Part shown: positions 39,017 through 42,908 of the stretch, piece by piece
Layout: each line of letters begins with the position of its first letter
Numbering within the stretch: position 1 is the stretch's first letter
Assembly: GCF_029227855.1 (NCBI RefSeq)
Contig: NZ_CP074356.1
Length of the DNA: 64,000 nt
Reading direction: 5' to 3' (one strand)
From: Escherichia coli
GTDB taxonomy: Bacteria > Pseudomonadota > Gammaproteobacteria > Enterobacterales > Enterobacteriaceae
Program-made: the position numbers and the translations under genes
Notes under the pieces: model-generated
Seen by the model: only the letters and a program-made list of their open reading frames with translations
Database searches by the model: none
What the model was told of the DNA's origin: nothing

Positions 39017-39238
<222 letters not shown>

Positions 39239-39491: not shown

Positions 39492-39579
39492 GGTGAGGTG
39501 TCCGAGTGGCTGAAGGAGCACGCCTGGAAAGTGTGTATACGGCAACGTATCGGGGGTTCGAATCCCCCCCTCACCGCCA
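39492..39579 (+). tRNA. serW: tRNA-Ser (anticodon GGA)
   Basis: 88-nt sequence GGTGAGGTGTCCGAGTGGCTGAAGGAGC...GGTTCGAATCCCCCCCTCACCGCCA with long variable arm and GGA anticodon; infA-adjacent copy, hence serW rather than serX. Confidence 0.95.
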
Positions 39580-39590
39580 TATTCAAAGAA

Positions 39591-39620
39591 GAGCTCGTAC
39601 GAAAGTACGAGTTTTTTTTC
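39591..39620 (+). terminator. Rho-independent terminator after serW
   Basis: Hairpin gagctcgtac/gtacgagttc followed by eight T residues. Confidence 0.7.
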
Positions 39621-39629
39621 GCATTTTAT

Positions 39630-39708
39630 CTGCCTGTACGGCAGTGAACGGTATAAAAATCGAGTTTTTCTTTCGGTTGGCTTTCTAAGCTGCCTGTACG
39701 GCAGTGAA
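39630..39708 (+). repeat. Two direct copies of a 19-20-bp hairpin-forming motif (tgcctgtacggcagtgaac) spaced about 59 bp apart
   Basis: Exact duplicate seen at 39631-39649 and 39690-39708 downstream of the serW terminator; each copy is itself a small palindrome (ctgcc-tgtac-ggcag). Confidence 0.7.
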
Positions 39709-39858
39709 CTCAAATACTACACGTTTAGTCCGTTATTAATAAAGCAAAACCATCTCATTTTCCTGCTACCACCCTTTTTTATCCTTACCTTCCCGCAGCA
39801 CTAATTATCAACAACTTACCATCATCATCAAAAAAAGGGTCTGAACCTCCTCCACCCC

Positions 39859-40565
39859 ATAAATAAATATCCTCCGGCATAGCCGGAGGTTTTTCAAATG
39901 CGCCTATAAGGCTCTCTTACCAGCCGCGCCCTAACAGGCGCACACGATCTGACATTTGCATCCAACTTCGTTACTTACGGCCCGTAAACGGGCTGCCCGG
40001 ATAGGGAATCGATAACTGCTCTCCCATTTTATCCTCTTCAAGCTGGTGCTTTATGTAATCCTGTATCTTCGCCGTGTTCTTACCCACTGTATCGACGTAG
40101 TACCCTCTGCACCAGAACTCCCTGTTCCTGTATTTGAATTTCAAATCACCAAACTGCTCGTAAAGCATCAGACTGCTTTTCCCTTTCAGATATCCCATAA
40201 ACCCGGATACGCTCATTTTGGGCGGGATCTCCACAAGCATATGGATATGATCTGCACAGCATTCAGCTTCCAGAATCCGTACGCTTTTCCACTCACACAG
40301 CTTTCTCAAAATACTGCCTATTGCTCTACGCTTCTCTCTGTAGAACACCTGTCTTCGGTATTTTGGCGCAAAAACTATGTGATATTTACAGTTCCATCGG
40401 GTGTGCGCTAAGCTCTTTTCGTTCCCCATTGGGACCCCCTTTTGATTTCTTGTTTGACACTTGCAGTTGCCAGACCGCAAAGTGTTTTAACAAATCAAAA
40501 GGGGTTTTAATAACTGGCTCAAAGCTGAAAGCTTTCCGGAACCCCCAGCCTAGCTGGGGGTTTTC
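39859..40565 (-). mobile_element. IS200-type insertion sequence (IS200/IS605 family, single tnpA); ends approximate
   Basis: Y1/HUH transposase ORF plus IS200-type architecture: RBS-sequestering stem-loop just upstream of the tnpA start (40440-40500) and a perfect 8-bp-stem hairpin cccccagc-cta-gctggggg at 40538-40556. The serW-clpA gap here is about 709 bp longer than I recall for K-12. Ends estimated from typical IS200 geometry, plus or minus 20 bp. Confidence 0.6.
39971..40429 (-). CDS. tnpA: IS200 transposase TnpA (Y1 HUH transposase)
   Basis: 152-aa protein from MGNEKSLAHTRWNCKYHIVFAPKYRRQVFY with HUH-type motif (HIHMLV) and catalytic Tyr region, characteristic of IS200 TnpA. Confidence 0.9.
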   Translation of the reverse strand: MGNEKSLAHTRWNCKYHIVFAPKYRRQVFYREKRRAIGSILRKLCEWKSVRILEAECCADHIHMLVEIPPKMSVSGFMGYLKGKSSLMLYEQFGDLKFKYRNREFWCRGYYVDTVGKNTAKIQDYIKHQLEEDKMGEQLSIPYPGSPFTGRK

Positions 40566-40568
40566 TGT

Positions 40569-40607
40569 GCACAAAAAAGTCCGTAACCTCTTTCGAGATT
40601 ACGGACT
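40569..40607 (-). terminator. Rho-independent terminator after clpA
   Basis: On the minus strand, hairpin gtccgtaatctcgaaagaggttacggac followed by ttttttgtg, 25 bp past the clpA stop. Confidence 0.65.
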
Positions 40608-40631
40608 TCACCAACCTACCTGACAATCAGA

Positions 40632-42908
40632 TTAATGCGCTGCTTCCGCCTTGTGCTTTTGTGCACTCTGGAATCCATAAGTCAGCTCATTTTTCTCTTT
40701 ATCCAGCGCAACCGTCACCTGACCGCCGTCCACCAGCGAACCAAACAACAGTTCGTTGGCGAGCGGTTTTTTCAGGTTGTCCTGGATGACACGCGCCATC
40801 GGACGTGCGCCCATTGCCCGGTCGTAACCTTTCTCGGCCAGCCAGTTACGCGCTTCCTGGCTCACTTCCAGAGAAACACCTTTCTGATCCAACTGAACCT
40901 GCAACTCGACGATGAATTTATCCACTACCTGATGGATCACTTCGGTGGAGAGATGATCGAACCAGATAATGTTGTCGAGACGGTTACGAAACTCCGGCGT
41001 AAAGATCTTCTTGATCTCTTCCATCGCATCGGTGCTGTTGTCCTGGTGGATAAGACCAATCGATTTACGCTCAGTTTCTCGTACCCCAGCGTTGGTGGTC
41101 ATCACCAATACCACGTTACGGAAGTCCGCTTTGCGTCCGTTGTTATCGGTCAGCGTACCGTTGTCCATCACCTGCAACAGAATATTGAACACGTCCGGGT
41201 GCGCTTTCTCGATTTCGTCCAGCAGCAGCACCGCATGTGGATGCTTGATGACCGCATCAGTCAGCAAACCGCCCTGATCAAAACCAACGTATCCCGGAGG
41301 CGCACCAATCAGACGGCTGACGGTATGGCGTTCCATATACTCGGACATATCAAAGCGCAGAAGCTCAATGCCCAACGCTTTCGAAAGCTGTACCGTCACC
41401 TCTGTTTTCCCGACCCCGGTAGGGCCTGCAAACAGGAACGAACCGACCGGTTTATGTTCGTGACCTAAACCTGCACGCGCCATCTTAATGGCTTCAGTCA
41501 GCGCCTCAATGGCTTTATCCTGACCGAAGACCAGCATTTTCAGGCGATCGCCGAGGTTTTTCAGGGTATCGCGGTCACTCTGCGAAACACTCTTCTCTGG
41601 AATGCGCGCAATACGGGCCACCACGGACTCAATATCCGCCACATTAACGGTTTTCTTGCGTTTGCTTACCGGCATCAGGCGTGCGCGAGCGCCCGCTTCG
41701 TCGATAACATCAATGGCTTTATCCGGCAGATGACGATCGTTAATGTATTTCACCGCCAGCTCTACCGCTGCACGCACCGCTTTTGCGGTATAACGCACGT
41801 CGTGGTGCGCTTCATACTTCGGTTTCAGGCCATTGATGATTTGAACAGTTTCTTCGATCGACGGTTCAGTAATATCAATTTTCTGGAAGCGACGCGCCAG
41901 AGCACGGTCTTTCTCGAAAATGTTGCTGAACTCCTGATAGGTTGTCGAACCAATTACGCGAATTTTACCGCTGGAGAGCAGCGGTTTGATCAGGTTAGCC
42001 GCATCGACCTGGCCACCAGAGGCTGCACCCGCACCGATAATGGTGTGGATCTCATCAATAAACAGGATGCTGTTAGTATCCTGCTCCAGCTGCTTGAGCA
42101 ACGCTTTAAAACGTTTTTCAAAGTCGCCGCGATATTTTGTGCCCGCTAACAGAGAACCGATATCGAGAGAGTAAATCGTACAGTCAGCCATCACTTCCGG
42201 CACATCGCCCTGAACAATTCGCCAGGCAAGACCTTCCGCAATCGCGGTTTTACCGACACCAGATTCCCCCACCAGCAGCGGGTTGTTTTTACGGCGACGG
42301 CAGAGAACCTGAATAGCACGCTCCAGCTCCTTCTCACGACCAATCAGTGGGTCGATTCCTCCCACGCGCGCAAGCTGATTCAGGTTCGTCGTGAAATTCT
42401 CCATACGTTCCTCCCCACCAGCTTGTTCTTCGCTGTTTGGCTGGCTGCCAGGATCAGAAGACTGTGTCGGCTCGTCTTTACGCGTGCCATGAGAGATAAA
42501 GTTCACCACATCGAGACGGCTGACTTCATGTTTACGCAACAGATATGCCGCCTGCGACTCCTGTTCGCTAAAAATAGCGACCAGAACGTTTGCACCGGTA
42601 ACCTCATTGCGACCGGAGGACTGGACATGGAAGACCGCACGTTGCAGTACACGCTGAAAACTCAGCGTCGGCTGTGTGTCGCGCTCCTCTTCACTGGCAG
42701 GCAGAACGGGTGTGGTTTGTTCAATAAAGGCTTCCAGTTCCTGACGGAGCGCAACCAAATCCACAGAACACGCTTCCAGCGCCTCCCGGGCAGATGGGTT
42801 ACTGAGCAGCGCCAGTAACAAGTGCTCGACGGTCATAAACTCATGACGGTGCTCGCGCGCTCTGGCGAAAGCCATATTTAAACTGAGTTCCAGTTCTTGA
42901 TTGAGCAT
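40632..42908 (-). CDS. clpA: ATP-dependent Clp protease ATP-binding subunit ClpA
   Basis: Two AAA+ modules ([16 protein letters not shown]); start trimmed to [19 protein letters not shown] (758 aa). Confidence 0.97.

Follow-up and report, generated by a model that had tools for sequence, protein, structure and literature searches.

The 64 000 nt stretch of Escherichia coli chromosome analysed here (the window), which is 100 % identical, feature by feature, to strain JNEC-KY178, raises the question of what occupies the space between two convergent genes, serW and clpA, and how it came to lie there. The tRNA-Ser(GGA) gene serW (39492–39579, plus strand), which has infA (39020–39238, plus strand) as a neighbour and its own terminator beside it (39586–39619), is separated from clpA (40632–42908, minus strand) by 1052 bp, which is 709 bp more than the 343 bp found in K-12. 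An earlier reading of the letters alone (the sequence-only reading) had put the two spacers at approximately 1053 and 344 bp and had attributed the excess to one 0.7 kb copy of an IS200-type element. This attribution was borne out by the measured lengths, by the agreement of gene calls and IS200 models, and by alignment with the K-12 clpA–serW spacer, which revealed approximately 0.7 kb of extra DNA rather than colinearity. Positions 39862–40572 (minus strand) almost certainly represent one intact IS200C, a minimal member of the IS200/IS605 family, which is 711 nt in length (5'-GTGCACAGAAAACCCCC...CCGGAGGATATTTATT-3') and lies behind the clpA terminator. No second copy of the element was found elsewhere in the 64 000 nt of the window. 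Its right end is 282 bp from serW, in keeping with the 280 bp proposed earlier, and 59 bp, not the proposed 65 bp, separate its left end from the clpA stop codon. The copy at clpA is a known, catalogued insertion sequence, and the type of site that it occupies is usual for this element.

The gene content of the element is limited to tnpA (39971–40429, minus strand; 459 of the 711 nt), which lies on the same strand as clpA and downstream of it, and no other gene was called or annotated. The 152 aa Y1/HUH transposase had been predicted at exactly these coordinates, and the ORF matched both the Pfam Y1_Tnp model (E=3.8e-38) and the NCBIfam transpos_IS200 equivalog (147.7 bits, cut-off 55), the latter placing it in the IS200 group rather than in another insertion sequence family. 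Alignment to the solved Y1 transposases 2ec2, 2f4f, 2a6m and 2xm3 (Sulfolobus, IS608 and ISDra2) located the HUH motif at H61-I-H63, the catalytic tyrosine at Y125 and a glutamine at Q129. The protein sequence is intact and identical across many genomes, and the RefSeq label of the identical protein in the JNEC-KY178 genome (WP_000526135.1) is IS200C family transposase. Two other identities were considered and rejected. A RAYT would be expected to reach the cut-off of 80 for NCBIfam REP_Tyr_transpos, under which tnpA scored 32.2 bits, and a two-gene, tnpB-bearing element of the IS605/IS608 type would have no space for its second gene, the right end being only 109 nt past the tnpA stop.

The K-12 alignment revealed the extra DNA, and the exact ends came from other filled and empty alleles. 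Two pairs gave exact junctions, namely PRO_A against the K-12-type empty allele and MEW against the GPEC206-type empty allele. The PRO_A junction reads TTTTTGTT / GTGCAC...GGATATTTATT / TATGGGG, where the K-12-type empty allele is TTTTTGTTTATGGGG, and the MEW junction is the same with A for G. In both genomes the arrangement is thus TTTTT(G/A)TT / IS / TATGGGG, against empty alleles of TTTTT(G/A)TTTATGGGG, with no target duplication at insertion. The TATGGGG past the right end (39855–39861, minus strand) directly continues the terminator T-tract in the empty alleles. At the K-12 empty sites yccU–hspQ and kdsA–ldrA the inserted DNA fits 711 nt, and at galU–hns and fabF–pabC filled minus empty came to 712 nt, with an uncertainty of 1 nt in the runs of T. 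The trailing AT(T) belongs to the element, as it is missing from the K-12 empty sites at all four of these loci. A length of 711 nt was found in all eight copies compared, and another copy of 711 nt, 100 % identical, is present at another location. Terminal inverted repeats are absent, with no match between the left end (GTGCACAGAAAA) and the reverse-complemented right end (AATAAATATCC).

Alignment with K-12 and GPEC206 had first been read as a clean 709 bp insertion (39865–40573), and this was ruled out by the four K-12 empty loci together with PRO_A and MEW. Under the 709 bp reading, the right-end flanks of independent copies all began with ATT, except for one that began with TTT. The fit looked exact because the ATT that terminates the element, followed by TATGGGG, imitates the GPEC206 allele ATTTATGGGG. 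The ends proposed in the sequence-only reading, 39859 and 40565, were 3 and 7 nt from the true ends at 39862 and 40572, although the proposal of one 0.7 kb element stands. Boundary conventions may also differ, with a reference ending ...GGATATTT or starting TGTGCAC. The exact 711 nt ends should be of practical use, given that A/T-rich ends can make a false boundary mimic a clean insertion.

In the window and JNEC-KY178 the element is preceded by TTTTTT, which is 2 nt shorter than the TTTTTNTT of every other filled genome. An empty allele that was already shorter before insertion (T7 then ATGGGG) was considered as the source of this junction and rejected, as none was found among 5412 genomes, in which the best full-length matches were all 2 nt longer. 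The flank thus lost 2 nt at insertion or later, and the spacer excess over K-12 is 709 bp because 711 nt were inserted and 2 nt of T-tract were lost. The cause may be a small deletion at either of these stages or, less probably, an assembly error that JNEC-KY178 shares.

The internal layout of the element, numbered from the G of GTGCAC, was compared to that published for IS200, in which a terminator hairpin at nt 12–34 blocks transcription coming from outside, a stem-loop at nt 69–138 hides the ribosome-binding site, and art200, an RNA of 90 nt that starts at nt 153/154, has a good −35 but a −10 that can hardly be recognised (PMC4513863). The window copy carries a perfect left-end hairpin with a 10 bp stem and a 3 nt loop (40540–40562, minus strand; element nt 11–33; −18.7 kcal/mol), the existence of which had been noted previously, although at 40538–40556. 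The predicted occlusion of the ribosome-binding site, formerly placed at about 40440–40500, was also found to be real; the stem-loop, recovered by both folding and Rfam, spans 40436–40504 (minus strand; element nt 69–137), and within it the Shine–Dalgarno G-run pairs with an upstream C-run. A small second hairpin is also present in the fold of the 5' region. Folding of the first 159 nt of the element gave −60.5 kcal/mol (z=−4.57), a stability that none of 200 shuffled sequences reached. The Rfam model STnc490 (IS200 RNA) matched 40439–40562 with 144.6 bits (gathering score 56). This match is to the strand that is sense for tnpA, and so opposite to the published STnc490/art200 RNA, which runs antisense to the tnpA 5'UTR; the two strands of 40439–40562 fold alike because the region is largely palindromic.

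Mapping of the published landmarks on the sequence predicted an art200 antisense RNA region at 40385–40511 (plus strand), comprising a putative −35 TTTACA (40385–40390), a poor putative −10 TAAGCT (40409–40414), a start at approximately 40420/40421, corresponding to the published nt 153/154, and a predicted terminator of hairpin plus TTTTAAT (approximately 40505–40511). The right end (39862–39889, minus strand) consists of a hairpin, CCTCCGGC-TAT-GCCGGAGG (39871–39889; element nt 684–702), that is terminator-like on both strands, and then ATATTTATT (39862–39870). Runs of A lie just 5' of the hairpins, as GAAAA at the left end and GAAAAA at the right end. At the level of sequence, the features of all published IS200 silencing layers are present in the window copy, and the expression-dampening layout that had been recognised earlier fits the landmarks of PMC4513863. 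From the experiments in Salmonella and E. coli reported there, we infer that these features would also be functional in this copy.

The site of insertion is the intrinsic terminator of clpA (40573–40608, minus strand), a hairpin followed by a T-tract. The left end of the element directly abuts this T-tract, after TT(G/A)TT in the filled alleles, and the element is co-oriented with clpA. A consensus terminator scan did not flag the clpA terminator, but direct folding does show a 14 bp hairpin (40577–40608; −21.7 kcal/mol).

In 2063 of 5426 complete E. coli genomes (approximately 38 %), a copy was found that spans 80 % or more of the element, at up to 35 places per genome, and copies at an identity of at least 99 % were found in 921 records; JNEC-KY178 itself has about two dozen matching places. 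The clpA terminator is filled in only seven of the 5426 genomes (JNEC-KY178, MEW, GMF065, 98224, PRO_A, O158:H23 CFIAFB20140388 and ECSC054). These copies are distributed over at least four sequence types, both the G and the A flank alleles and differing clpA backgrounds, and the clpA terminator is therefore a recurrent landing site with repeated gain of the element. All of these types entered the clpA terminator at one and the same nucleotide, after TT(G/A)TT, including the copy in ECSC054, a variant (95 %) that differs at 22–24 of its 711 nt. In an eighth genome, isolate 362, a variant lies elsewhere in the spacer, after TTCTT and behind the hairpin of a serW-terminator-like repeat on the clpA-sense strand. 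Recognition of the clpA terminator as a recurrent IS200 landing site should be of practical use.

The context of the insertion was then compared across copies, using contigs that encode the identical protein and species-representative genomes scanned with the left-end hairpin sequence. This sample covered 35 sites in nine genera (Escherichia, Citrobacter, Kluyvera, Brenneria, Pluralibacter, Mangrovibacter, Kosakonia, Entomohabitans and Yersinia), which together supplied 37 distinct left-end flanks. A GC-rich hairpin and a T-run directly precede the element in 37/37 flanks, with the foot of the hairpin 1–8 nt (mostly 3–7) from the junction. Positions −1 and −2 are T in every flank and −4 to −6 in nearly all, while position −3 is free, giving the motif TTNTT. 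As a control, 115 kb of K-12 showed a hairpin at 61 of 319 intergenic TTNTT sites (19 %; P~1e-27). Contig look-up revealed a co-oriented gene ending approximately 150–210 bp before tnpA at 9 of 10 places, and the flank hairpins are therefore most likely the terminators of those genes. The right end of the element shares this terminator layout, with a hairpin and then a T-rich stretch ending TTATT.

The general pattern of insertion next to terminators is already reported at the family level, terminator-like sequences being enriched just upstream of insertion sequences and most strongly in IS200/IS605 (10.1101/2025.07.22.666184). Beyond this family-level enrichment, no explicit IS200 target rule was found in full-text searches, although older subscription papers and ISfinder/TnPedia may have one. 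We tentatively suggest, as a possibility drawn from the comparison of copies, that IS200C actively homes to intrinsic terminators, with the single-stranded DNA of a terminator mimicking the right end of the element and being read by its A-runs, and with the resulting copies being harmless and shielded. The A-runs 5' of each hairpin would probably pair with T-rich cleavage sites, a guide role proposed because of the analogy with IS608 guide sequences. The resemblance between a terminator (hairpin and T-tract) and the right end may be the reason that terminators are targeted. New copies would be placed behind a host terminator, co-oriented with the terminated gene and shielded from incoming transcription.

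The strongest competitor to active homing, which we consider somewhat unlikely, holds that the transposase does not recognise the hairpin context at all, that insertion takes place after any TTNTT, and that only harmless, silent, post-terminator copies survive selection. Insertions in genes or promoters would indeed be purged, the 19 % of intergenic TTNTT sites with a hairpin provide plentiful raw material, and the study that reported the family-level enrichment reads the upstream terminator-like sequences as contexts that limit transposase expression (10.1101/2025.07.22.666184). However, a hairpin at 37/37 sites is extreme against 19 % even within intergenic sites, the distance between hairpin and junction is narrow, and many other neutral intergenic TTNTT sites are unused. 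In addition, one nucleotide of the clpA terminator has been used by two IS200 variants. If active homing is true, the nucleotide-level rule (hairpin, T-tract ending TTNTT, element), together with the mimicry mechanism, would be new, and such a targeting rule could explain how a near-silent element reaches dozens of copies without harm.

The orientation of the copies bears upon the route of transposition. At six loci (clpA, kdsA, galU, fabF, yccU and pheP), a small sample from one replichore, the upstream co-oriented gene is on the K-12 plus strand at 0.6–1.3 Mb. Given where oriC and the terminus are known to lie, this interval belongs to the clockwise replichore. With the co-oriented gene on the plus strand of that replichore, the strand that is sense for tnpA is the lagging-strand template. 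The IS200/IS605 family is described as moving by single-strand, replication-coupled peel-and-paste with a bias for the lagging-strand template (PMC5371812), and the orientation at the six loci is consistent with use of that template. Arrival by peel-and-paste would have involved the excision of a single-stranded circle and its entry into the lagging-strand template, on the 3' side of a short T-rich sequence (TTNTT), with 2 nt of the flanking T-tract probably being lost during or after insertion in the lineage of the window.

Whether the element has any effect upon its host was considered in two ways. The first is that it is retained mainly as a source of regulatory RNA (art200 and the processed tnpA 5' end) acting on host genes. 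The left-end RNA region is wholly intact and strongly structured, and regulation of the host by the 5' tnpA RNA is reported in two Salmonella studies (PMC5435999; bioRxiv 10.1101/2024.06.26.600842). Nevertheless, we regard retention for this purpose as improbable: the presence of the element varies between strains and reaches 35 places per genome, its recurrent insertion at one site shows ongoing mobility, tnpA is intact with its protein identical in many genomes, and no RNA function is tied to the clpA locus.

The second is a local effect, namely that the insertion alters clpA expression through the 3' end or terminator of the gene, as the sequence-only reading had raised with respect to clpA 3' processing or termination. 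The clpA stop codon is close to the element start, and the distal U-tract (G/A-UUUAU) is replaced by GUGCACAG in the filled allele of the window. However, the native clpA hairpin, sought previously at 40569–40607, is unchanged and keeps its −21.7 kcal/mol fold; although the T-tract is 2 nt shorter, it retains six consecutive U's (40573–40578), and the element brings a second terminator hairpin of its own 10 nt inside its left end. We therefore consider altered clpA expression very improbable, and the earlier suggestion is not supported by the sequence. Because the hairpin and six U's are kept, and because the element has a terminator-like hairpin of its own on either side, little or no change is expected at either gene, and the effect of the insertion on clpA and serW expression is probably close to nil.

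A history in which the 0.7 kb segment is ancestral and was lost by precise excision from K-12 and most strains is hardly credible, for although excision in the IS200/IS605 family is seamless and no scar would be expected, the seven filled genomes among 5426, with their multiple sequence types, flank alleles and clpA backgrounds, indicate repeated gain.

Several further features were observed in the rest of the serW–clpA spacer. An orphan type I-F CRISPR array lies outside the element (39622–39709, minus strand), with repeats at 39682–39709 and 39622–39649 (the latter degenerate) and a spacer at 39650–39681; the Rfam model CRISPR-DR4 matched the two repeats with 50.1 and 29.7 bits. The 32 nt spacer differs from that of K-12, matches the type I-F cas gene csy3 at 30–31 of 32 positions in strains carrying the system, and is unchanged in approximately 380 genomes. 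This fits the anti-cas spacers of orphan E. coli arrays, as described in PMC5972030, which cites Almendros et al. 2016. A promoter-like site (39804–39831, minus strand; TTGATG, 16 nt, GATAAT) lies between the right end of the element, 31 bp upstream of it, and the first CRISPR repeat, and its motifs and position make it a candidate for the leader promoter of the array.

Repeats of approximately 180 bp, annotated as 'RtT sRNA', are present beside serW in one to three copies in several strains, with none in the window (39580–39620); they start with a partial tRNA-Ser 3' end and finish with a terminator-like hairpin. On the clpA-sense strand, the hairpin of the serW terminator (39586–39611, minus strand) is followed by CTCTTCTTTG, an arrangement of the hairpin-plus-TTCTT type seen in isolate 362, and this is a second potential IS200 target within the spacer, which is empty in the window. 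In the O158:H23 genome (NZ_CP076709.1, locus 1535–2400), IS200C lies between the clpA terminator on the left and a serW-proximal repeat on the right, and the CRISPR array has been lost together with its leader. Recombination between two IS200 copies in the same orientation, one of the clpA-terminator type and one of the isolate 362 type, appears to have caused this deletion, which would also remove the anti-cas spacer. Weak Rfam matches near infA (sraA, ar35 and AaHKsRNA41) were far below their gathering scores and were treated as chance.

Among known systems, the closest is IS200C of E. coli, in the RefSeq/PGAP usage of the ISfinder name, which has an identical TnpA (WP_000526135.1) and the same hairpins and ends, and which is represented at further loci in other E. 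coli genomes by 711 nt copies with 100 % identity. The element itself is no different in the window; its rare location (7 of 5426 genomes) and the loss of 2 nt from the T-tract are what set this copy apart. The Salmonella IS200 landmarks (nt 12–34, 69–138 and 153/154) all map onto the window copy, as does the STnc490 model, although that element belongs to another host species and another sequence subtype, and its published length of 707 or 710 bp differs by 1–4 nt from the 711 nt found here. IS608 and ISDra2 share the Y1/HUH fold family, hairpins near both ends, the lack of a target duplication and insertion 3' of a motif that abuts the left end, and the orientation of the window copy is consistent with the lagging-strand template. 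They differ in that the window element is without tnpB and in that its target is the T-rich TTNTT rather than TTAC or TTGAT; to our knowledge, a host hairpin that always adjoins the target is not part of the IS608 model. RAYTs are distantly related Y1 transposases that act on hairpin-forming repeats, but the element in the window is a discrete mobile unit, as opposed to a single-copy gene flanked by REP sequences.
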